Positions 889 to 13,522 of a stretch of 13,990 nucleotides of DNA are shown here, piece after piece. Below the pieces are notes generated by a model, which ran no database searches, was not told the DNA's origin, and was given only the letters and a program-made list of their open reading frames with translations. Location of the stretch: contig CAVUXE010000061.1 in assembly GCA_963745235.1 (NCBI GenBank), positions 1 through 13,990 on the forward strand. Direction: 5' to 3'. The position numbers and the translations under genes were made by a program. Position 1 is the stretch's first letter. Each line of letters opens with the position of its first letter. This DNA is from an uncultured Spirochaetota bacterium. Its GTDB lineage: Bacteria > Spirochaetota > Spirochaetia > SZUA-6 > Fen-1364.

Positions 889-1276
<388 letters not shown>

Positions 1277-1378
1277 TGACGATTTCTTCCGTCCGCGGCC
1301 ACGCCAACTTTGGTAGAGGGCTTCCTTCGTCCAGCTCTTGGAAGCGTTGCTTTCTAACAATTTCTCAGTCCCTTTGGA

Positions 1379-1409
1379 TTGACAATTGTATATGTTCATC
1401 GTATACATT
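1379..1409 (+). promoter_or_regulatory. Sigma70-type promoter of brnTA with an overlapping inverted-repeat operator
   Basis: TTGACA (1379-1384), then 17 nt to TATACA (1402-1407) or 19 nt to TACATT (1404-1409). Inverted repeat TGTATA-N9-TATACA at 1387-1407. Confidence 0.7.
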
Positions 1410-1413
1410 GTAC

Positions 1414-1734
1414 GTGAGTCTGCTCGACGAGTTCTTTGAAACTCTGGAAGGCTTTCAGTGGGATCAAGGCAATTCCGAAAAGATCTGGGTAAGACATGAA
1501 GTGTCCCAAGCTGAGTGCGAGCAGCTGTTCCTCAATCGACCAATTGTCGTAACCTTTGACGAGGACCATTCTAAGCTGGAACGGAGGTTCGTGGCGTTGG
1601 GGCATACTGACTCTGGCCGCCAACTAACTGTCGTTTTCACTATCCGCGGCTCGTTGCTGCGAGTTATTTCAGGTCGGCCTATGAGCCGGCGAGAACGGGG
1701 GATCTATGCCAAGCGCACGCAAACCGGTACCTGA
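1414..1734 (+). CDS. brnT: BrnT family ribonuclease toxin (type II TA)
   Basis: GTG start at 1414 is in frame with ORF 1276..1734. Typical BrnT pattern FQWDQGNSEK..HEVS...DEDHS..ERRFVALG...LTVVFTIRG..LRVISGRPM..RER..Y. Overlaps the downstream antitoxin. Confidence 0.9.
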   Translation: MSLLDEFFETLEGFQWDQGNSEKIWVRHEVSQAECEQLFLNRPIVVTFDEDHSKLERRFVALGHTDSGRQLTVVFTIRGSLLRVISGRPMSRRERGIYAKRTQTGT

Positions 1735-2074
1735 GTTCAGGTCAGAAGCCGAAGAACGTGCCTTTTGGGAAGAGCACGATACGGCTGACTATCTGGACTG
1801 GTCGCGGGCAGAGGTCGTCCGGTTTCCGAACCTCAAGCTGTCTACTTCCACAATTTCGCTACGGCTTCCGGCTCAGCTTCTCGCAGACCTGAAGCTCCTG
1901 GCCAACAAGCGTGATGTACCATATCAGTCGCTGCTCAAGGTTTATCTAGCGGAACGGATTGCGGCGGAAAGCGCCAAGGCACGCCCCAGCAAACCTTCGC
2001 GACGCTCTAAGTCACCTTCGTCCTCCAAAAGGGGAACGAGGCTTGCGAAGAGGGATCACTCACGATCGAGCTGA
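1706..2074 (+). CDS. brnA: BrnA / CopG-type (ribbon-helix-helix) antitoxin
   Basis: PEFRSEAEERAFWEEHDTADYLDW...TISLRLP..LL..LK..A.KRDVPYQSLLKVYL matches the CopG-antitoxin/BrnA signature. Directly downstream of brnT. Confidence 0.88.
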   Translation: MPSARKPVPEFRSEAEERAFWEEHDTADYLDWSRAEVVRFPNLKLSTSTISLRLPAQLLADLKLLANKRDVPYQSLLKVYLAERIAAESAKARPSKPSRRSKSPSSSKRGTRLAKRDHSRSS

Positions 2075-2119
2075 GGTGAATATCCGTGACTGATTCCGCC
2101 TCACGCACTGGGGTGAGCT

Positions 2120-4595
2120 TTGGTGAGCGACAGCCATAGCAACGATGCGCGACGGCGAATACTCGCCGAACAGATAGCTCGGGAAGAACAGCGTATTTCG
2201 GAAATCCACGCTGAGCTAAAACGGCGCCATGCCCTAGTTTCTTCTTTCAAGGAGCAGTTGGCTGGGCTTCAGCCAATGGCCAACGGATTGACAGTGCTTG
2301 ACGAAGGCACAACGTCGACGACAACAACCCTCTCAAGCGAGGAGAAAGTGCGACTGTTTCGTTCGCTGTTTCGCGGTCGAGAGGACGTTTTCGCGCGTCG
2401 CTGGGAGAGCCGCAGGACGGGAAAGGCTGGCTATTCGCCGGCTTGCGCGAACGAGTGGGATCCGGTGCTCTGCGGAAAAGCAAGAGGTCCAGGAAGCACC
2501 CGAAAGGCAAACTGCCTTGAATGCTGTGAGCATGCGTTCTTTCGCGTTACCGACGAGGAAATCGAGAAGCATCTCAAAGGCTTTCAAGTCATGGGGGTAT
2601 ACCCGCTTCTCACCGATGAAACATGCTGGTTTCTTGCCGCGGACTTCGACGACGGCGCGTGGCAGGAAGATGTAGCTTCGTTCCGTGAAGCGTGTCATTC
2701 ACACGACGTTCCCGTGGCGATCGAGCGATCGCGTTCGGGCAACGGTGCGCACGCTTGGCTCTTCTTTTCCGAACCCGTCCCCTCCAGCCTTGCGAGGAAC
2801 TTGGGGTGTTTCTTGATAACCGAATCCATGGCTCGTCGCCACCAACTTTCGATGTCGTCCTATGATCGGCTTTTCCCAAACCAGGATACGCTCCCCAAGG
2901 GTGGCTTCGGCAACCTCATTGCCCTTCCCCTTCAGCGTGAATCAAGGGCGGGAGGCAATTCGGTATTCGTTGATGCATCACTCACTCCCTATGCAGACCA
3001 GTGGGCTTTCTTGTCGAGTATTCGGCGCACCGATTTGAATCGTGTTCGGGAAATCGTTCAAGACGCGGGTCGCCGCGGCCAAGTGATGGGTCTGCGAATG
3101 GTCGATACCGAGGAGGAATCCGGACGTACTCCGTGGAAACGGCCTCCATCCGGCTACGAGGAACGGGTGTCCATAAGTGAGGCCCTTCCGCGCGAGGTGC
3201 ACGCTGTCATCTCTCAACGCTTGTTTCTCGAACGAAACGGCCTTCCCTCTCCTCTTCTGAATCAGATCAAACGCCTGGCTGCCTTCCAGAATCCGGAGTT
3301 TTACAAGAGGCAGAGCATGAGGCTTTCCACTGCACTCACCCCCAGGGTTATTGCATGTACAGAAGAGCTCTTCGAGCACATCGCCCTGCCTCGTGGGTGC
3401 TGGCCCGATGTTGAAGCCCTATTGAACGAACACGGCATTGCCCTCTTGGTCGAAGACAAGCGCGAGGAGGGTACGGCGCTTGAATGCTCCTTCACAGGTA
3501 CTCTCACCTCGAGTCAGAAGCGAGCTGCAAGGGCTCTCTTGGCTCACGATATTGGCGTTCTGGTGGCGCCTCCGGGAACGGGCAAGACCGTCGTGGGGAC
3601 TTTTCTGATCACCATGCGGCGTCGGAATACGCTCGTTCTTGTTCACCGCAAGCCTCTCCTCGATCAATGGGTCGCTCAACTTGCGTTGTTCCTTGGCAAG
3701 GAACCTAAAGAAATCGGCCAGATCGGCTCTGGGAAGAACAAACCTACTGGCGAGATCGATGTGGCGATGATGCAGAGCCTGGTTCGACTTGGCCGCGTAG
3801 CTGACCTTGTGGCTGGCTACGGACATGTCATAGTGGATGAGTGCCACCACATCCCGGCCATTTCCTTCGAGCGAGTACTTTCAGAAGTGAAAGCCAAATT
3901 TCGTCATGGGGCTTACCGCAACTCCACGTCGCCGGGACGGGCAGCAGCCTATCCTTTATATGCAACTCGGCCCTGTCCGATTCAGTGTCGATTCTCGAAC
4001 CAAGAGCGCACAACGGCCATTTGAGCAGTCTCTCATTGTCCGCGAGACTACGTTCCTTCCTGAGGCGCAGACCGATCAAACCAGCATCCAGCAGCTGTAT
4101 GCGATGCTGGCGGCTGATGAGGCGCGCAATGATCTCATCTGCACGGATGTGATCCGAGCCCTTGAGGAGGGTCGCTCACCTATCGTGCTCACGGAGCGGC
4201 GCGATCACCTGGAAAGGCTGGCCGACAAGCTGCGTGTGTACGTTCCGCATCTTGTCGTGCTCCATGGAACAATGAAGACTTCGGTGCGTCGTGAGGCCCT
4301 CGTACACTTCGCCACGGTGCCCGACGGCAAGCCGCGGCTTCTGCTTGCAACAGGGCGATACATAGGGGAAGGATTCGACGATGCACGACTGGACACCTTG
4401 TTTCTCGCCCTGCCGGTGTCGTGGAAAGGGACGCTGATTCAGTACTCGGGCCGTCTCAATCGCCTTCATGCCGGCAAGACAGAAGTGCGGATATACGATT
4501 ACGTGGACCGAAAAATCCCAATGCTTCTTCGGATGTTCGAAAAGCGTCTTCGTGGCTATCGGGCAATAGGGTATGTTCGTGAAAAGGACGATTGA
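2120..4595 (+). CDS. AEP (archaeo-eukaryotic primase-like, TOTE-type) domain fused to an SF2 DExH helicase (type III restriction Res-like); interrupted by a 1-nt frameshift near 3899-3901
   Basis: AEP motifs LAADFDD, ERSRSGNGAHAW and DRLFPNQD..GGFGNLIALPLQ, plus a Cys cluster (CAN..C..CLEC). Walker A APPGTGKT and DECH lie in ORF 2120..4024. Motif III (GLTATP), EGFD and motif VI QYSGRLNR lie in ORF 3906..4595. Removing one T from AAATTTCGTC restores AKFVMGLTATP, about 824 aa. The start may be TTG 2120 or GTG 2123. Confidence 0.85.
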
Positions 4596-4609
4596 GAGAC
4601 GGGAACAAG

Positions 4610-4957
4610 ATGAAACGCAAGCAACAAAGACCGGGCCGACGCGGCTCACTATCCCCCTCGCCGCTTGAGCGAATGATCTCAGAGGCAATCGTCGACTGCT
4701 ACAATGAGAGTGAGCAGGCGATGGGTCTTTTCGCTATGGTCGAGGAGAATCTCCGCCTCCCGTTCTCAACCATGGTGCTTGGCATCCAGGTCAAAGTGCA
4801 GAAAGTCGAACTCAATGACGCGGGAGAAATTGTCGCGGTTTGTTCCAGAGGCCCGGAGAAGCAGCGGATTCCATTAGTGGACCTTGTCCTTCCATCTCCT
4901 CGACCTGAAGGGGCAGAGTGGATTGAAGCGTATCGTCGCTGGGCGAGAGGAAGATAA
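4610..4957 (+). CDS. CcbP-like ('calcium-binding protein') family hypothetical protein
   Basis: ATG 4610. EAIVDCYNESEQAMG...LRLPF...IPLVDL...EWIEAYRRW resembles the CcbP-family pattern. Lies 14 nt after the helicase stop. Confidence 0.7.
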   Translation: MKRKQQRPGRRGSLSPSPLERMISEAIVDCYNESEQAMGLFAMVEENLRLPFSTMVLGIQVKVQKVELNDAGEIVAVCSRGPEKQRIPLVDLVLPSPRPEGAEWIEAYRRWARGR

Positions 4958-5057
4958 CCATTAGGCACGGCTATTCGGGAATCACAGACATCGGCGAGCC
5001 CGACCTCCGTTAGCTGGCGCAAGACGAGAGCCTGTTGGGAAAGAACTCGCCGATATA

Positions 5058-5250
5058 GTGCCCGATAAAGGATATGAGAAAAATCCGCAATTCTTTGCAA
5101 ATTGATCCAAACCGATGCTTCCGCCGCCGCGGTGCTACTCGAAGTCCTGTGAGACGGAATGTCAGAAAAGCCATCGGGCGTAGCCGCTTTGGATCCACAT
5201 TGGTCCAAGTTCTTCCATATACCTGTAATTTTCAACGGTTCCTAAAACCG
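5058..5250 (+). repeat. Diverged direct copy of the flanks of the att-like site at 889-1276, lacking the tRNA core
   Basis: 5058-5080 vs 889-911: 19/23 identical, continuing to TTGCAAAT..CAAA (about 5111 vs 943). 5114-5154 vs 1140-1180: 34/41. The final 63 nt (to 5250 vs 1276): 42/63. Counted by eye. Confidence 0.8.
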
Positions 5251-5508
5251 CGGCGCTTCATTCTGTCTACGCCCCGATAAATCCGTGCAACACTGGGCGG
5301 GAGTGGCAGTGCCGATCTTCTAGGTGCTCAGCGCACGCTACCGTTTCGACATGGGAACAGAACAATCAGACCGCGCCGGAAGCCGGAGCCAACAGCAACT
5401 TCCGCAATTCCATTGGCCTGACCCTTGGCGGGCAGAATCGGCCGTTCGGGGATCTCTCGTCCTCATTGCCTGCGACGCCGTTCGAACTCTGCACCTTGTT
5501 TGGCGCGC

Positions 5509-5540
5509 TCGTTGACAACGAAAGCACGAGACAATACCCT
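5509..5540 (+). promoter_or_regulatory. Sigma70-type promoter of the ABC/deaminase operon with a palindrome over the -35 box
   Basis: TTGACA (5512-5517), 17 nt spacer, TACCCT (5535-5540). Palindrome TCGTTG-A-CAACGA at 5509-5521. GAGG RBS before ATG 5570. Confidence 0.6.
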
Positions 5541-5569
5541 GGGAGAAGGAAGAATATGGCGAGAGGCAA

Positions 5570-6388
5570 ATGCAGAGATCACTGTACTGGATACTGATTG
5601 CACCGGGTGTCCTGCTCTTGGCTGTCTTCCTTTTCTATCCGCTCATCGTCGTCCTCATTCCCACCTTCGGAGCCGGAAAAGCGCTCGGCGGCCGCTACGT
5701 AGCATTCTTTGCGGATCCCTACTATCTCAAGATCTTTGCGCGCACGATCTGGATCGGCCTTGCTGCCACGGCCGTTTGCGTCGTTCTGGGCGTTCCAACT
5801 TCCTATTTCATTTCCCGCAGAAGCAGCCGGGCCAAGTCGATTCTGATGGCAGTCTCGATTTTTCCGCTCCTCACGAACGCCGTCGTGCGAGCCTTCGCGT
5901 GGATCATCGTCCTGGGACGGGACGGAGTCGTGAACTCCCTCCTCCTGGCGCTGAAGTGGATCGACAGGCCCCTCACTCTTCTGTACACGGACTTTTCGAT
6001 TCTAGTCGGCACGATCTATCTCTTCCTGCCCCTCATGCTCATTACCCTCGTCGGCAGTATGGACACCATCGAAGAGGAAGTGACGGAAGCCGCTGAAAGC
6101 CTGGGAGCCAGCCGCTTTGGGACTTTCCTGAGGGTGGTGTTTCCGTTGAGCCTGCCCGGTATCCTCATCGGCAGCGTGCTCGTTTTCACGGGAGCCATCA
6201 CCGCGTATACGACCCCTACGCTGCTCGGCGGCAATAGAAGCATGCTGCTGGCTACATTGATCTACCAGCGCGCGATGAGTCTCTCCGACTGGACCGGCGC
6301 CGGTGTGATAGCGCTCGTCATGATCGTCGTGACCCTTGCGGTGGTGAAAGGAATGCAGGACTTCGCCCGGCGTCTGGACCGAAGATGA
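5570..6388 (+). CDS. ABC transporter permease (PotB-like)
   Basis: Multiple hydrophobic TM segments; EAA loop EAAESLGASRFGTFLRVVFPLSLPG; FPLLTNAVVRAFAW and YTTPTLLGG patterns. Confidence 0.92.
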   Translation: MQRSLYWILIAPGVLLLAVFLFYPLIVVLIPTFGAGKALGGRYVAFFADPYYLKIFARTIWIGLAATAVCVVLGVPTSYFISRRSSRAKSILMAVSIFPLLTNAVVRAFAWIIVLGRDGVVNSLLLALKWIDRPLTLLYTDFSILVGTIYLFLPLMLITLVGSMDTIEEEVTEAAESLGASRFGTFLRVVFPLSLPGILIGSVLVFTGAITAYTTPTLLGGNRSMLLATLIYQRAMSLSDWTGAGVIALVMIVVTLAVVKGMQDFARRLDRR

Positions 6389-7176
6389 TGGCGGCCAGGA
6401 AGCATCTCTGGTTGACGGTGTATTCCGTCGGCGTCTTCCTCTTCCTGGTGACGCCTCTGGTGATCATTGCGATCACGGCGTTCGGAGAGGCCAGCACCAT
6501 CCGCTTTCCCATTCAAGGCTTCACCGTGAAGTGGTTCATTGCAGTCTTCGATTCTCATTCATTCATGTCGTCCCTCGGGTTGAGCTTCATGCTCGCCATC
6601 TATGCGACGCTCCTCGCTCTGGCGGTTGGAATCCCCGCGTCGTACGCGCTGGGAAGGACGGCATTCAGGCGCAACTCGTTTCTCAGGTCGCTCTTCCTGT
6701 CTCCGGTCTTCGTCCCCGGAATTGTCGTAGGCTATGCCCTGTTCAAATTCCTTGTGATCGCGATGCGCCTGCCGGTCCTCGCCGGGCTCGTGATGGGGCA
6801 CTTCCTCGTGATTCTCCCCTATGTCATCCGCGTGGTCGGCGCGAGTCTGGAGCACTTCGACTTCTCCGTGGAGGAAGTTGCACGCAGCCTCGGCTGCAAC
6901 CGGGCGCAGGCCTTTGTGAAAGCGGTGCTGCCGAACATCGGCTCCGGCATCATCGCCGCGTTCATGCTCGCCTTCATCAATTCGTTCAACAATGTGCCCG
7001 TCTCGATGTTCCTGAGCGGCCCCGGGGTGTCCACGTTTCCCCGTACGCTCATCAGCTACATCGAGTACAGCTACGACCCTTCGGTGTCCGCGGTTTCGGT
7101 TCTTCTCATGGCCGTCACCGTAGCTTTGATGTTTCTCATGGAAAGAACGCTGGGCATCGGAGCCCTCGCGGAATAG
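6385..7176 (+). CDS. ABC transporter permease (PotC-like)
   Basis: TM segments; FPIQGFTVKWF; EAA loop EEVARSLGCNRAQAF..VLP; ATGA overlap with the upstream permease. Confidence 0.92.
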   Translation: MMAARKHLWLTVYSVGVFLFLVTPLVIIAITAFGEASTIRFPIQGFTVKWFIAVFDSHSFMSSLGLSFMLAIYATLLALAVGIPASYALGRTAFRRNSFLRSLFLSPVFVPGIVVGYALFKFLVIAMRLPVLAGLVMGHFLVILPYVIRVVGASLEHFDFSVEEVARSLGCNRAQAFVKAVLPNIGSGIIAAFMLAFINSFNNVPVSMFLSGPGVSTFPRTLISYIEYSYDPSVSAVSVLLMAVTVALMFLMERTLGIGALAE

Positions 7177-7184
7177 GAAAGCTC

Positions 7185-8222
7185 ATGCCATACGTGGAAT
7201 TGGAGAATATTCGGGTCTCCTACGACGGCAAGACAATTGTTCTCGATGGATTGAACATGTCCATCACAAAAGGGGAGCTTGTTTCCCTTCTCGGGTCCAG
7301 CGGCTGCGGAAAGACGACGACGCTTCGCGTGGTGGCGGGATTCATCGAGCCTGCCAGGGGACGTTTCCTGCTGAACGGCAGGGACCTGACTCGAACGGCG
7401 GTCCACAGGCGCAATTTCGGTCTGGTCTTTCAGAGCTACGCATTGTTTCCACACCTGACGGTGTTCGACAACATTGCTTTCGGGCTCACGTTGCGGAAGG
7501 TGGATGCAAAGGAAAAAAAGAAGCGGGTAGAGGAGGCGCTCGACTTCACCGATTTGTTTGATCTTGCGCGTCGCTACCCAAAGCAACTTTCCGGCGGACA
7601 GCGCCAGCGCGTGGCACTGGCCCGCGCGCTGGTTATCCAACCTGAGCTTCTCCTCCTCGATGAGCCGCTGAGCAATCTCGATGCGAAACTGCGTCTGGAA
7701 ATGCGGGTGGAGATCAAACGACTGCAAAAGAGACTCGGCATCACCACGATCTTTGTGACGCATGACCAGGAGGAATGTTTCTCGATTTCCGACCGTGTGG
7801 CGATCATGAACAAGGGCGCAATCGAGCAGTTCGACAAGCCGGAAGCCATCTATTCGAGCCCTGCAAACGAGTTTGTCGCGCGCTTCGTCGGGTTCACGAA
7901 CTTCTTCGATCTGACCAAGGTAGGCGCGAGGCGGTTTCGGGCCCCTCATGGCGGGGAGATCGACGTGGATGGAGATCGGGACGTCCAGAGGTGCGTTGGC
8001 GCGATCCGTCCAGAGGACATCGAGCTGTCGGCGGCAAGGATCGGCCACAGCAACACCGTTGCAGGGATGGTCGAGGTCCGCACCTTCCTTGGAAAGAGCT
8101 ACCAATACGAGCTGTCGACGGACATAGGCCGTCTTGTGGCCAACGCGCCAAAGGATTTTGCTTTCGAGCCGGGAACCCGGATCTTTGCCAGATTCCCGTC
8201 GGAAAGAATAGTATTATGCTAG
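7185..8222 (+). CDS. ABC transporter ATP-binding subunit (PotA-like, C-terminal TOBE)
   Basis: Real start ATG 7185 (MPYVELENI) within ORF 6531..8222, with AGGA upstream. Walker A GSSGCGKT, Q-loop FQSYALFPH, LSGGQ, LLLDEP, H-loop VTHD. Confidence 0.95.
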   Translation: MPYVELENIRVSYDGKTIVLDGLNMSITKGELVSLLGSSGCGKTTTLRVVAGFIEPARGRFLLNGRDLTRTAVHRRNFGLVFQSYALFPHLTVFDNIAFGLTLRKVDAKEKKKRVEEALDFTDLFDLARRYPKQLSGGQRQRVALARALVIQPELLLLDEPLSNLDAKLRLEMRVEIKRLQKRLGITTIFVTHDQEECFSISDRVAIMNKGAIEQFDKPEAIYSSPANEFVARFVGFTNFFDLTKVGARRFRAPHGGEIDVDGDRDVQRCVGAIRPEDIELSAARIGHSNTVAGMVEVRTFLGKSYQYELSTDIGRLVANAPKDFAFEPGTRIFARFPSERIVLC

Positions 8223-8250
8223 CGGCCATTCGTCGCGTAAGGAGTACAAC

Positions 8251-9312
8251 ATGAGAACGGGCGTGTCTGTGGCGCTTGTCGCCGTCCTGGTCTGGTTTGC
8301 GGCTGGGGCCGCCGGCGCGGAGGATTCCAGCAGTGCCGGAGCGTCGGGAAACCGAACGCTGGTCGTATCGACGTGGGGGCTGGGTGAGGACGTGCTGTGG
8401 CGGGACGTCTACACGCCATTCGAGAAGAAGTACAACTGCAAGGTGGTGCTGGAGCTGGGAACCACGCCCGAGCGCTACACGAAGCTCGCGGCCGACCCGA
8501 ACTCCACCGTCGACGTGATAGAGCTCTCCCAGAAGGCAGCGGCGGATGGCTACGCGGCGAACCTGTTTGCCAAGATCGATTACAGCAAGATTCCGAACGC
8601 GAAATACCTGATAGGCCCCGCCAAGAGCCTGACAAAGAACGGATACGGCCCCGCATACACGGTCAACAGCATAGGCATCATCTACAATCCAAAGGCCATC
8701 GGGTTTCCCATGAAGGACTGGGCCGATCTCTGGCGTCCCGAGCTGGCGAATCAGATTTCCATCCCGGCAATCACGTCCACGTTCGGGCCAGCCATGGTTT
8801 ACGTCGCAGCGGACTACGCCAAGGTCCCCGTGACGGAGGACAATGGCGCCGCCGCCTTCAAGGCGCTGGCGGAGCTCAAGAAGAACATCGTGAAGACGTA
8901 CGAAAAGTCCTCCGACCTCGCGAACATGCTCGCCAGCGGGGAAATAGCCGCTGCCGTGGTCGGGGATTTCGCCATTCCCATCATCACCAAGGCCGTGCCA
9001 GAAGCGAAATACCTGGTTCCCCTCTCCGGTACGTACGCGAACTTCAACACAATCGACGTCGCTGCCGCCTCCAAGAACAAGGATCTGGCCTACGCCTACA
9101 TCAACTGGCGCATCAGCGCGGAGCTTCAGAACAAAACGGCCGTCTCCCTGAACGAGGCACCCATCAACTCCATGGTCAAGCTCAGCGCGGGGCAGGCCGC
9201 GCGGATGACGTACGGCGACGTGGCCAGGCGCGCCAGGACCATCGACTACGTTTTTGTGAACCCCCTGATGAATGGCTGGGTGGATTCCTGGAACCGTACT
9301 CTCAACGATTGA
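8251..9312 (+). CDS. ABC transporter substrate-binding protein (PotD/PotF-like cluster)
   Basis: AAGGAG RBS; N-terminal signal peptide (AGA-E like cleavage); LVVSTWG, KIDYSKIPN, WADLWRPEL and AYAYINW patterns. Confidence 0.92.
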   Translation: MRTGVSVALVAVLVWFAAGAAGAEDSSSAGASGNRTLVVSTWGLGEDVLWRDVYTPFEKKYNCKVVLELGTTPERYTKLAADPNSTVDVIELSQKAAADGYAANLFAKIDYSKIPNAKYLIGPAKSLTKNGYGPAYTVNSIGIIYNPKAIGFPMKDWADLWRPELANQISIPAITSTFGPAMVYVAADYAKVPVTEDNGAAAFKALAELKKNIVKTYEKSSDLANMLASGEIAAAVVGDFAIPIITKAVPEAKYLVPLSGTYANFNTIDVAAASKNKDLAYAYINWRISAELQNKTAVSLNEAPINSMVKLSAGQAARMTYGDVARRARTIDYVFVNPLMNGWVDSWNRTLND

Positions 9313-9322
9313 CGGAGCTTCT

Positions 9323-11020
9323 GTGATCATCCACGGGGCCGGAGTTTTCAACGCCTTCAGAAGGAGATTCGAGGACTGGGACGTCCGCGTGCGCGACGGG
9401 ATCTTCGTCGAGGTGGCTGCCGGGCTCGAACCCCTGCACGGCGAGGAACGGTTGGATGTCGACGGGGCCTGGCTCGTTCCTGGCCTTGTCGATGTCCACA
9501 TGCACATCGAAAGCTCCATGACGGTGCCCGCGGAGTTTTCCCGAATGGTTCTTCCCCGGGGAACCACGACCATCGTAGCTGATCCACACGAAATCGCGAA
9601 TGTCCTGGGCGTCGACGGCATACGGGCGTTCATTGCAAGCACGACGCCACTGGATATCTTCTTCGCCATCCCTTCCTCCGTCCCTTCGACGAACGAGCGG
9701 TTGGAGACGACAGGCGGCAGCATTGGTCCGGCTGAGCTTGCTCTCCTTGCCGCCGACAAACGGGTGATCTGCCTCGGTGAGGTTATGAACGCCGTGGACC
9801 TGCGCTCGCAGGGGGATACTGCGATAAAACGTCTGGTTCGAACATTCAGGGATCTGAGGCCGCTCTCTCCCATCGAGGGCCACTGTCCGAAGCTGAGCGG
9901 CGCGCAACTGTCGTCATTCATCGCTTCGGGGGTATGGTCGGACCATACGCAACAGACGCCGGACTCCATTCTCGAAAAGATCGACAGGGGCATGTTCATC
10001 GAGCTTCAACGAAAGTCGATCACGCGAGCGACCGTCGAGACGGTGGTCCGAAACGGACTGTACGAGCACGTGAGCCTCGTCACCGACGATGTGATGCCGG
10101 ACGAGCTCCTGTCCGGTCATCTCAACCTCCTTGTCACTCTTGCGATAGAGCAGGGCATGAAGCCGGAGGACGCGATTTACTGCGCCACCTATACTCCTGC
10201 CCGTCACATGCTGCTCCGTGACAGAGGCTCCATAGCGCCGGGGCGCATTGCCGACTTCATCGTCCTGGAGGATCTGAAGACATTCAAAATCCGATCTGTG
10301 TACAAGAAGGGCGCATGGGTGCGGCCGCAGGAGGCGCCTGCGGGCGGCGCAAGGAGAAGGTCCTTCCCTGAATCTTTCTATTCCACGGTCCGTCGGCGCA
10401 CGCTCGCCGAGGCAGCTTTCGAGCTCCGAGTTCCCTCTGCCGCTGGAGAAATGGACTGCACCACCATCCGTATCGATCCGAAATCGAACTTCACTACCCG
10501 AGGACGGGTTCGCTGCCCGATCTCGAACGGTCGTCTGGATTGGAAGTCCGCAGGGCTTTCCCTGATCGCGGCCGTCGAGCGCTATGGGCACGAATCGCCC
10601 ATTCGGTTCGGTTTTGTAGAGAATGCGCTGAAGAAAGAAGGCGCCGTTGCAACCACATGGGCGCACGATCACCACAACCTTCTGGTCATGGGGAGATCCG
10701 AACGGGACATGGCCGTTGCCGCGGACGCTCTGATCGAACAGCAGGGCGGGTATGTCGTGGTTCGAGGCGGAGACGTGGTGGCGAACACGGCCTTGCCCGT
10801 GGGGGGCATCGTGAGCGAGGCGCCCTTCGAAGAACTGGCGGCGTGTATACGCGAGGTGCGTTTGCAGATGCGCGCGCTGGGCTACGAGCACGTCAACGAA
10901 ATCATGTCCTTCAGCACGCTTTCGCTCCTCGTTTCGCCGGGCATCAAGATCAGCGACAAGGGCCTGGTGGACGTGACGGGCCAGACCATCGTGGAGCCCT
11001 ATGAGCTTCCTCATCGATGA
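9323..11020 (+). CDS. ade: Adenine deaminase family amidohydrolase (variant)
   Basis: GTG 9323 with GGAG RBS. PGLVDVHMHIESS, ADPHEIANV, LGEVMN, EGHCP, TDD, GSIAPGRIADF, AHDHHNL and LPVGGIVS; 565 aa. The usual DHE motif reads DHT here. Confidence 0.85.
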   Translation: MIIHGAGVFNAFRRRFEDWDVRVRDGIFVEVAAGLEPLHGEERLDVDGAWLVPGLVDVHMHIESSMTVPAEFSRMVLPRGTTTIVADPHEIANVLGVDGIRAFIASTTPLDIFFAIPSSVPSTNERLETTGGSIGPAELALLAADKRVICLGEVMNAVDLRSQGDTAIKRLVRTFRDLRPLSPIEGHCPKLSGAQLSSFIASGVWSDHTQQTPDSILEKIDRGMFIELQRKSITRATVETVVRNGLYEHVSLVTDDVMPDELLSGHLNLLVTLAIEQGMKPEDAIYCATYTPARHMLLRDRGSIAPGRIADFIVLEDLKTFKIRSVYKKGAWVRPQEAPAGGARRRSFPESFYSTVRRRTLAEAAFELRVPSAAGEMDCTTIRIDPKSNFTTRGRVRCPISNGRLDWKSAGLSLIAAVERYGHESPIRFGFVENALKKEGAVATTWAHDHHNLLVMGRSERDMAVAADALIEQQGGYVVVRGGDVVANTALPVGGIVSEAPFEELAACIREVRLQMRALGYEHVNEIMSFSTLSLLVSPGIKISDKGLVDVTGQTIVEPYELPHR

Positions 11021-12319
11021 TGTCCGCGTCCTGACCATGAACGCTGCCATGGACAGCTTCGAACACGGCTGCGTGGCAGTGGAGGGGAAGACCATCGTCG
11101 CGGTCGGGGACAGGAGCTCGGCAGTCGATATCCGGGGTTCGAAAGGATCGATGGGGACGGGGGAATCCTCATCCCCGGCCTCATCAATGCGCACACCCAC
11201 AGCGGCATGATTCCTTTTCGTTCGCTCGGCGACGACTGCGTGGATCGACTTCGCCGGCTCATTTTTCCTCTCGAGGCCTCGATGACGGCTTCCCTTGCCC
11301 GCGCAAGCGCGCGCTATGCCTGCTGCGAGATGCTCCTTGCGGGCGTCACCACCTTCCTCGACATGTACTACTTCGAGGACGACATAGCCCGGGCGGTGAA
11401 GGAAACGGGGATGCGGGCATTTCTCGGTGAGACGGTGATCGGATCCCCAAGCTGCGACGCGCCGGAGCCTCACGGGGGGCTCACGCGCGCCAGGCGGTTC
11501 ATTCCGGACTGGCTCAATGACGAGCTCATCACGCCCATGGTTGCGCCGCACGCAACGAACACGAACAGCCCTGGGGCCATCGTCGAGTCTCGCCGGCTCG
11601 CTGATCGCCACGGCGTTCCCCTGATGATGCATGTGAGCGAGATGGACTACGAGGTTTCCCATTTCCGCGACACCTACGGCATGACGCCAATCGGTTTCCT
11701 CGACTCTCTGGGTGTGCTCGGAGAGCGGTTCATAGCAGCGCACTGCGTTCTGGTCGACGATGACGACATCGATACCCTCGCGCGTCGCCGCGTGACGGTT
11801 GCGCACTGCATCGGCGCGAATACAAAGAGCGCCAAGGGCGTTGCTCCGGTAAGAAAAATGCTGGAACGGGGTGTGCGCGTGGCACTGGGGACCGACGGCC
11901 CTTCCAGCGGCAACACCCTGGATATGTTCACGCAGTTCGATCTGTTCGCGAAGTTCCACAAGACTGCGAACAGGGACAGATCTGCCTTTCCCGCGAAGGA
12001 GATCGTCAGGCTGGCGACGTGCGACGCCGCAGCAGCCTTGCGAATCGGAGACAAGGTCGGATCCATCGAAGTGGGCAAGAGGGCCGACCTGACGCTCGTC
12101 GAGAGCCGGTCCGCCAACATGTTTCCGATCCACGATCCTTATTCCGTTCTCGTCTACAGCGCCAAGGCTTCCAACGTGGACAGCGTCTTCGTGGACGGCC
12201 GGCCCCTGGTCCGCCGCAAGGCCCTCACGGCTCTCTCCCTTGATGATTCACGGACGGAGCTGCAGGAGAAGATGGCGGACTTCCGTGCGGCCGCGCAGGC
12301 CCTGGCGAGCACTCTTTAG
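11001..12319 (+). CDS. Amidohydrolase of the MTA/SAH deaminase (AtzA/TrzA-like) family; frameshifted near 11106-11109
   Basis: The N-terminal beta region MSFLIDDVRVLTM..GCVAVEGKTIVAVG is in frame 11001. IDGDGGILIPGLINAHTH is in the frame of ORF 11207, upstream of its ATG. Later motifs: APHA, MHVSE, AAHCV, GTDGPSSGN, GSIEVGKRADL, VDSVFVDG. Adding one G to GGGG joins the frames. Confidence 0.85.
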
Positions 12320-13135: not shown

Positions 13136-13308
13136 GCGTTTCCGTTGCGCTTTGTTTCTCAAGAGCCGGGAGCAGCACCGCTGGCATGGAACCCGTGCCC
13201 CATCAGGGTTTCCATTGGCCATGAAAAAAGGCCGTGGCAGCCCTGATCGGGTATCGGTAGCTTGATGCCGAGCGAGTCACGAATTGGAATACATGCCAAG
13301 CTTGCGAG

Positions 13309-13332
13309 TCTGTTACATTATCTGTGACATTA
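13309..13332 (+). repeat. Tandem 12-bp direct repeat, candidate integrase arm-type sites
   Basis: TCTGTTACATTA (13309-13320) and TCTGTGACATTA (13321-13332), 11/12 identical, about 140 bp upstream of the tRNA-Leu core. Confidence 0.6.
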
Positions 13333-13470
13333 TTCTTTTCGCAGTCACTGCAAATCGTTGCAAGTCCTTGCACGTCCACTTGACGGATTTCTTTGCTACC
13401 GAGATAGTTGCTGCAAATAGATGCGTTCTGCTGCAAGCCCTTGCAAGCTCTGAAAATGGCTACTGCCAGT

Positions 13471-13522
13471 TTGAGGGGCTAGTGCCCGAAAGGGTGTGCT
13501 GGTTCAAGTCCAGTCCGCAGCA
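13471..13522 (+). pseudogene. tRNA-Leu(GAG) 3' half (att core), not an intact tRNA
   Basis: Anticodon loop TTGAGGG (13471-13477), 3' stem GCTAG, long variable arm GCCC-GAAA-GGGT, T arm GCTGG-TTCAAGT-CCAGT, acceptor 3' strand CCGCAGC + A. There is no GCTGCGG 5' strand or D arm at the expected place upstream. The 5' stem CCAGT pairs imperfectly. Confidence 0.88.

Follow-up and report, generated by a model that had tools for sequence, protein, structure and literature searches.

Site B, which occupies positions 5018-5274 of the stretch of DNA analysed here, is probably a decayed junction, i.e. an inert scar within a stack of small, mostly integrase-less cassettes of the kind that builds up behind tRNA-Arg(CCT) in this genus. 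The stretch, hereafter called the window, is one whole contig of 13,990 nt, and the genome assembly to which it belongs (5.8 Mb in 104 contigs, 85.7% complete, 5.9% contamination) is a fragmented metagenome bin. An earlier note on the window had described a core-deleted paralogue of an attachment (att) site, with a left arm fused directly to a right arm. That description holds, as both arms of site B are significantly similar to those of another site, site A (889-1306), and abut at 5113|5114, with 196 nt of site A (944-1139) absent between them. Among the readings that the note had offered, that of a dead att scar which fixed its cargo is also the one favoured here, since B keeps what is, judging from sequence comparison, a genuine left arm and lacks the tRNA fragment.

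Site A, like site B, is described here on the + strand. Its left (P-type) arm, L_A (887-945), is part of a profile match at 887-1104 (E 4.6e-52), is covered by repeat families D2 and D3, and contains a 21-mer, GTCAGATAAAAGATGTGAGAA, at 891-911 as well as the motif TTGCAAATCGTTACA at 925-941. Further along is a conserved middle segment, M_A (979-1058), recognized in a promoter scan by sigma-70-like hexamers, TTGACG (980-985) and TAATAT (1003-1008), which are separated by a 17-nt spacer and directed towards the tRNA fragment; from these hexamers, M is predicted to act as a promoter. The listed sequencing runs that contain the stretch include no recorded RNA dataset. Next comes T_A (1059-1104), a 46-nt 3' fragment of tRNA-Arg(CCT) that extends from the anticodon stem to the 3' end of the tRNA, is 91% identical to the gene on contig C90 of the same genome and is the presumed crossover core. 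R_A (1105-1306), defined by its position after T, is both the right arm of site A and the left end of the cassette that lies between the two sites. It comprises a proximal part (1105-1174), a second copy of the 21-mer (1175-1195) and an L-like stretch (1170-1242; L profile E 8.6e-5), and it ends in a decayed tRNA fragment, T', that starts at ~1262. The earlier note was correct in that a 196-bp piece with a tRNA-Arg core is absent from B; however, the core is the 46-nt 3' fragment and not a tRNA, as ARAGORN calls no tRNA gene in the window and Rfam gives no match at E<=1, so that a tRNA gene within site A was rejected. A terminator-like hairpin with a T run (831-856) stands immediately before the L arm of site A and fits the end of a preceding cassette.

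The genuine tRNA-Arg(CCT) gene of this genome, the only one called by ARAGORN, lies at 1559-1632 of contig C90, where it is followed by ~100 nt resembling the start of the R arm and then by a tyrosine integrase. Given this location beside the target gene, the C90 enzyme is the candidate cognate integrase and presumably acts on the att sites described here. Within the window, no integrase is encoded, based on Pfam and on a search with the C90 integrase, and an integrase remnant at site A or B was discarded as a candidate, with only chance-level window matches in tblastn using the C90 query. Two further tRNA-Arg(CCT) fragments are located on contig C15 of the same genome. A second type of tRNA-Arg(CCT) fragment site, found at C15:3110-3157 (G000) and at 2512-2553 of locus L059 (G015:C11), has a different upstream arm that is conserved between both copies and is devoid of L-M; the copy in G015 is followed downstream by an integrase that is 87.5% identical to the C90 integrase.

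Across the genus, site A matches 29 of the 41 genomes searched, its own included, and beyond the genus the matches cover the tRNA part only. The genus-wide module measures ~215 nt and consists of L arm, spacer, M and T in that order, with an L arm that carries a 21-mer close to TGTCAGATAAAAGATGTGAGA and a TGCAAAT..TCCAAA motif, and with an M whose hexamers follow the pattern TTGACC, 17-18-nt spacer, TAnnnT. Such modules close small cassettes that are mostly without an integrase, and same-orientation arrays of them, with modules 1.3-15 kb apart, occur in G013, G015, G017, G018 and G019, the last of which has the full tRNA-Arg(CCT) gene at the head of its array. Integrases or integrase remnants do lie downstream of T in five other modules, so some of these units once had an integrase of their own. 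R stands after T in the window, G007 and G017, and after the full tRNA in G010. T is the only part common to the module and the tRNA gene, and it is there that cassette neighbours change between genomes; from this, we infer that T is the crossover site. The first hexamer of M starts 123-125 nt before the end of T in 19 of the 28 fragment-bearing sites; at three genuine tRNA-Arg(CCT) genes, the corresponding distance, from the start of the gene's own promoter-like hexamers to the 3' end of the tRNA, is similar (119-120 nt). M may be an outward promoter or a relic of the copied tRNA gene. On 21 M-T segments, the pairs predicted by RNAalifold number 10, one of them with a double change, and all belong to the tRNA T arm and a stem adjoining it. 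A D-arm-like hairpin between M and T had been suspected by eye and was dropped because single-sequence folds give it inconsistent registers.

The similarity of site B to site A was recovered with different methods for its two arms. With blastn at word size 7, as the earlier note had suggested, the right arm aligns at 1140-1300 versus 5114-5274, with 70.6% identity over 163 columns and E values of 3e-21 (window) and 1.3e-18 (5.8-Mb genome); ungapped, 107 of 161 positions agree. The left arm was not returned by blastn at E<=10, and its case comes from Smith-Waterman alignment of 889-943 with about 5058-5112 (38/55 identical, score 22). For this query, site B is the best-scoring place in the whole window on both strands, and the score was reached by none of 5000 shuffles against 860-1000 and by none of 200 against the whole window, both strands. 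Additionally, a profile derived exclusively from modules of other genomes, 18 in number, matches the L arm of B at 5050-5119 (E 5.2e-12). Only profile positions 14-83 of the L-M-T profile, corresponding to L, are matched at site B, in contrast to the L-to-T match at site A. In the whole genome, the profile finds L copies only at sites A and B, and it finds no T to the right of site B in the remaining contig.

Comparison with L arms elsewhere extends the left arm of site B, L_B, to 5018-5113, where it forms the right end of the cassette. Its identity with the L arm of G017 is 81%, and over 5018-5116 four L arms, found in G013 and G015, reach 84-91%. Each of these four G013/G015 arms leads on into spacer and M, and in three cases T follows as well. 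Such similarity argues that L_B is a genuine L arm. Its 21-mer (5060-5080) carries substitutions, which are taken up below. The L/R junction at 5113..5114 was placed by alignment with G013, G015, G017, G007 and G010, in which B proves to be short of the ~26-nt spacer, of M and T, and of the initial 35 nt of R. To its right, R_B (5114-5274) is a paralogue of R_A from R_A position 36 onwards, is 78% identical to the R of G007, and contains a 21-mer-like stretch at 5148-5169, within an L-like stretch (5140-5217) that reaches a profile E of 0.49.

The end of R carries a trace of the tRNA. In G007, T' aligns with the tRNA fragment at 40 of 46 positions and none of 2000 shuffles is as good, and for G010 and G017 the figure is 1 of 2000 each. 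The window copies are marginal, with the score reached by 107/2000 shuffles in A and 53/2000 in B, where T' (~5236) matches the tRNA at 14 of 15 positions of the anticodon stem-loop, with a single gap, and no longer matches outside it. The small terminal hairpin that the earlier note saw in both copies (~1262-1277 and 5236-5251) is indeed kept, and corresponds to the anticodon stem-loop of this tRNA-Arg fragment, subject to the marginal score of T' in both. After T', the sequences of R_A, R_B and the G007 arm diverge, and this suggests that R may itself be a collapsed ~200-nt unit between a live core and a dead one.

The cassette between sites A and B spans ~4 kb. In Pfam terms, site A is followed by BrnT and a CopG/BrnA antitoxin, a TOTE primase-helicase in two overlapping ORFs, a CcbP-like gene and then site B, to the right of which are an ABC transporter, an adenine deaminase, an amidohydrolase and a MNT/HepT pair. 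The BrnT toxin and CopG/BrnA antitoxin (1276-2074, +; PF04365, E 9.6e-20, and PF12441, E 6.5e-32) correspond to ORFs at 1276-1734 and 1706-2074, and the true start of BrnT is probably later than 1276. The TOTE-type primase (AEP), so named from Pfam PF22548 alone (E 1.5e-95), is fused to a ResIII/Helicase_C helicase (PF04851, PF00271) at 2120-4595 (+). A frame change at ~3891-3910 splits this gene into ORFs 2120-4024 and 3906-4595, the counterpart in G017 being a single 760-aa ORF, and the split reflects a frameshift or else an error of assembly. A small CcbP-like gene (4592-4957, +; PF11535, E 2e-7) closes the cassette and has the same position in G017.

That the cassette is a unit with defined ends follows from its recurrence in other genomes. 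Collinearity with G017:C3 extends over 979-5116, with identities of 80.4% (1422 nt) and 84.5% (2611 nt); in G017:C3, the order is M-T-R, antitoxin, 760-aa TOTE gene, CcbP-like gene and L, and the homology with G017 ends at 5116, i.e. at the junction. Beyond this point, the G017 cassette continues with L, spacer and an insertion sequence (IS) with a DDE transposase, and then M-T, so that it keeps at its right end what B is lacking. The IS itself (locus L057, G017:C3, 7872-9170; DDE_Tnp_1) separates the L-spacer from M and lies within the first promoter hexamer; on the far side of the IS, this hexamer has the sequence TAGACC. In G010, R and the same CopG/BrnA antitoxin gene, which make up the left end of the cassette, come directly after the full tRNA gene. 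Because these contexts differ among the window, G017 and G010, the unit R-BrnTA-TOTE-CcbP-L occupies different positions, each bounded by T or the tRNA; R forms the left end of the cassette and L its right end. From the G017 and G010 comparison, site B is the right end of this cassette minus spacer, M, T and 35 nt of the next R.

These comparisons also bear on the direction of change. It might be supposed that B, with L beside R, is the ancestral empty form and that A gained a 196-nt piece with a promoter-like segment and a tRNA fragment, for which parsimony within the window is the sole argument. However, all 18 canonical modules aligned from other genomes read L-spacer-M-T, the hexamers keep their fixed distance to the end of T, the orthologous cassette of G017 reads L-spacer-[IS]-M-T, tRNA or T leads directly into R in C90, G010 and G007, and the L/R form is seen only here among the genomes searched. 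Such an origin is exceedingly improbable. The comparison likewise contradicts the idea that B serves as a scaffold for swapping tRNA cores, as 19/28 sites have the same M at a fixed distance from the same fragment; because the orthologous G017 cassette still has M-T, B is a derived form and not an empty scaffold. A search for homologues with and without a core, likewise proposed at the outset, thus yielded L-M-T modules across the genus and, among the genomes searched, the core-less junction form only in this one.

Since the genome is a fragmented bin, it also had to be considered whether an assembler had joined L and R from different places, such that the junction exists in no cell. Contigs of four public runs were aligned to 4700-5600. 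In X1, the run in which the stretch is best represented, a contig is identical to the window at 413 of 414 positions over 4700-5113 and then departs, exactly at 5113, into AATCCAAGACGAACAACTCTCCAACGGACG, which is the canonical L spacer, a behaviour that an artefact could explain. On the other hand, a 151-nt record from X2, an independent metagenome of another study, matches 5038-5188 with no differences and with 75-76 nt on each side of the junction, while a second X2 record covers 5175-5325. Because the first of these spans 5113|5114 exactly, the junction is real in an independent data set. Moreover, no repeat is common to both sides of the junction that could have misled the assembler, and A and B are only ~70% alike. 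We therefore consider an artefact very unlikely. The X1 contig, in continuing as L spacer, shows that an intact version of this cassette end exists elsewhere, and it may represent that end in another context; X1 contigs do not cover 5114-5362, and this gap in cover is no proof of absence.

As to what kind of sequence site B is, the suggestion that it is non-coding and without codon-position bias is confirmed: none of the reading frames stays open in each of the five R homologues, mismatches fall 16/19/19 by phase, and ORFs overlapping site A or B have no Pfam match. The possibility that the repeat is a remnant of a coding gene or of an IS end was raised together with the original proposal, and neither proved to be the case. 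The sole inverted repeat touching B (574-594 / 5036-5056, 21 nt, 86%), considered as an IS or MITE end, is at chance level (E 0.2). A structured RNA gene likewise finds no support; the fold of B has z scores of -0.42 (+ strand) and -0.53 (- strand) versus shuffles, Rfam gives no match, and RNAalifold on M-T contributes only the T arm and adjoining stem already mentioned.

The location of B ~300 nt upstream of the first permease gene, and on the same strand, would be compatible with B serving as leader or regulatory DNA for the ABC-transporter operon that begins at 5570, with its likeness to A reflecting a shared promoter or operator. Yet a consensus scan finds no promoter-like site in 5000-5700, B is without M, the promoter-like part of the module, and R_A and the R of G007 each precede different gene sets, all of which makes this a highly improbable account. 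The block of ABC transporter, adenine deaminase and amidohydrolase genes at 5570-12319 is itself accessory. For its first permease (5570-6388), the 20 other genomes of the genus yield nothing at E<=1e-40, so the right flank of site B is accessory too and unusable as a fixed landmark; the sole segment to the right of site B with a counterpart in another genome is 5295-5447 (G006, 71%, no tRNA in the vicinity). Near the end of the contig, 13465-13522 is a 58-nt 3' fragment of tRNA-Leu(GAG), 96.6% identical to the gene on contig C91, which has an integrase downstream. A repeated motif, ctgttacattatctgtgacattatt, lies upstream of the fragment (13310-13335) and is present also just downstream of the C91 gene. 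The region 13300-13522 has the appearance of an attR end belonging to a second family of islands, and with such a site near its end the contig is a mosaic of island ends.

If B were still in use, it would have to be without a core. An att-site core is a segment of the target tRNA, and B has no T; what it offers are two arm motifs in direct order (5060-5080 and 5148-5169), an arrangement like that of site A. These could be read as a retained, working accessory site, i.e. a core-less cluster of arm sites that titrates integrase or excisionase as a decoy, as the earlier note had entertained, or that aids synapsis. However, the first motif carries three changes at its 28 near-invariant columns, which are at least 94% conserved elsewhere, compared with 1 of 34 at site A and 0-2 of 29-34 in the 18 intact reference modules, and the second stands at an E value of 0.49. 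As they concern three positions, the changes are a weak hint that constraint on the 21-mer of B has been lost. There is also no sign that the junction form is conserved: of the 12 matches that the B region has in the 40 other genomes, self-matches set aside, not one extends across the junction, and the 21-nt exact junction word has only three matches in two public collections (one in a metagenome, two in genomes), which are put down to chance because all are without flanking homology. With no positive evidence for it, a working accessory site is quite unlikely, and the scar remains the preferred reading of B. A complete L_B-spacer-M-T-R_B sequence was not seen among the sequences compared.

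The formation of such a scar can be pictured as follows. In the intact junction, L would be an arm whose repeated motifs are presumably binding sites for the integrase or accessory proteins, R is likewise presumed to bind integrase, and T would be the place of strand exchange for a tyrosine integrase supplied in trans. An ordinary, non-site-specific deletion has then probably taken ~200 nt from B, comprising spacer, M and T together with 35 nt at the start of the following R, and would have joined L to R directly. In this way, B would also have lost the outward-facing M hexamers. Since a site without T cannot recombine, the cassette would now be welded to the DNA on its right and B would be inert. 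The junction has no clear microhomology. A one-step deletion between two GGATGCTT words, one of which stands at the spacer/M boundary (in G013 and G017) and another at the start of R_A, was rejected, as it would keep the 26-nt spacer, which is absent from B.

The decay of accreted islands similar to CIMEs is of an already known kind. In the ICESt1/ICESt3 family, as described in PMC5704250, att-flanked units stack at tRNA genes and decay into integrase-less elements. The likeness to the CIMEs of that account extends to integrase-less units, att sites with a tRNA 3' repeat, stacking by site-specific integration and internal decay. However, a CIME in that description keeps attL and attR, whereas the BrnTA-TOTE unit (1105-5113), which is without an integrase, has T_A at its left and a right site that has lost its core, and it is thus not itself a CIME. 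Furthermore, unlike in the CIMEs of PMC5704250, the conserved arm here is ~170 nt with a promoter-like segment, and mobility here is deduced from comparison only. Among the tandem ssrA islands of Dehalococcoides, some are without integration modules and some are suggested to be now fixed, according to PMC3146451. They resemble the present arrays in their same-orientation direct repeats of the 3' end of a small-RNA gene, placed downstream of that gene; however, the islands portrayed in PMC3146451 involve a tmRNA target, a serine integrase and a 20-bp repeat, and the arrays here involve a 46-nt tRNA-Arg(CCT) repeat and a tyrosine integrase beside the gene. The tycheposons of Prochlorococcus, as presented in bioRxiv 10.1101/2020.12.28.424599, likewise have partial tRNA copies as the only separation between elements at tRNA genes, as well as degenerated remnants and partial tRNAs in scattered places, although they belong to a different phylum and to different element families. 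Finally, ICEclc is reported in PMC5812530 to have at its end an outward promoter, Pcirc, which after circularization reads across attP and so reaches the gene at the opposite end of the element. The M hexamers share the geometry given there for Pcirc, but the activity of M is putative and most cassettes here have no integrase for it to drive. Since B is without M, the comparison with Pcirc concerns site A.

Taken further, the tRNA-Arg(CCT) arrays might be a working cassette platform, integron-like in its logic, and not merely a graveyard of islands. Under this proposal, which we hold as a whole to be a speculative and rather doubtful one, the integrase beside the tRNA would shuffle integrase-less toxin-antitoxin, defence and metabolic cassettes in trans, each cassette would bring an end module of ~215 nt from which the conserved M promoter is read past the junction and into the cassette that follows, and collapses such as that at B, together with the ~200-nt R units with a dead T', would be a regular route by which cassettes fuse into larger co-mobilized units.

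Site B as interpreted here would be a scar recording how a mobile cassette comes to be fixed: its flanking arms persist, but the 46-nt crossover piece is gone. Because another data set contains a nearly identical, intact form of this cassette end, the example is a clean one and can be dated. In itself, B is of little consequence, and the genus-wide pattern of modules is more useful. This att-module family has a strongly conserved promoter-like segment and closes integrase-less cassettes of toxin-antitoxin and TOTE conflict genes; its pattern provides precise boundaries for annotating the accessory and defence cassettes of these genomes, as well as a testable case of cassettes mobilized in trans at a tRNA gene.
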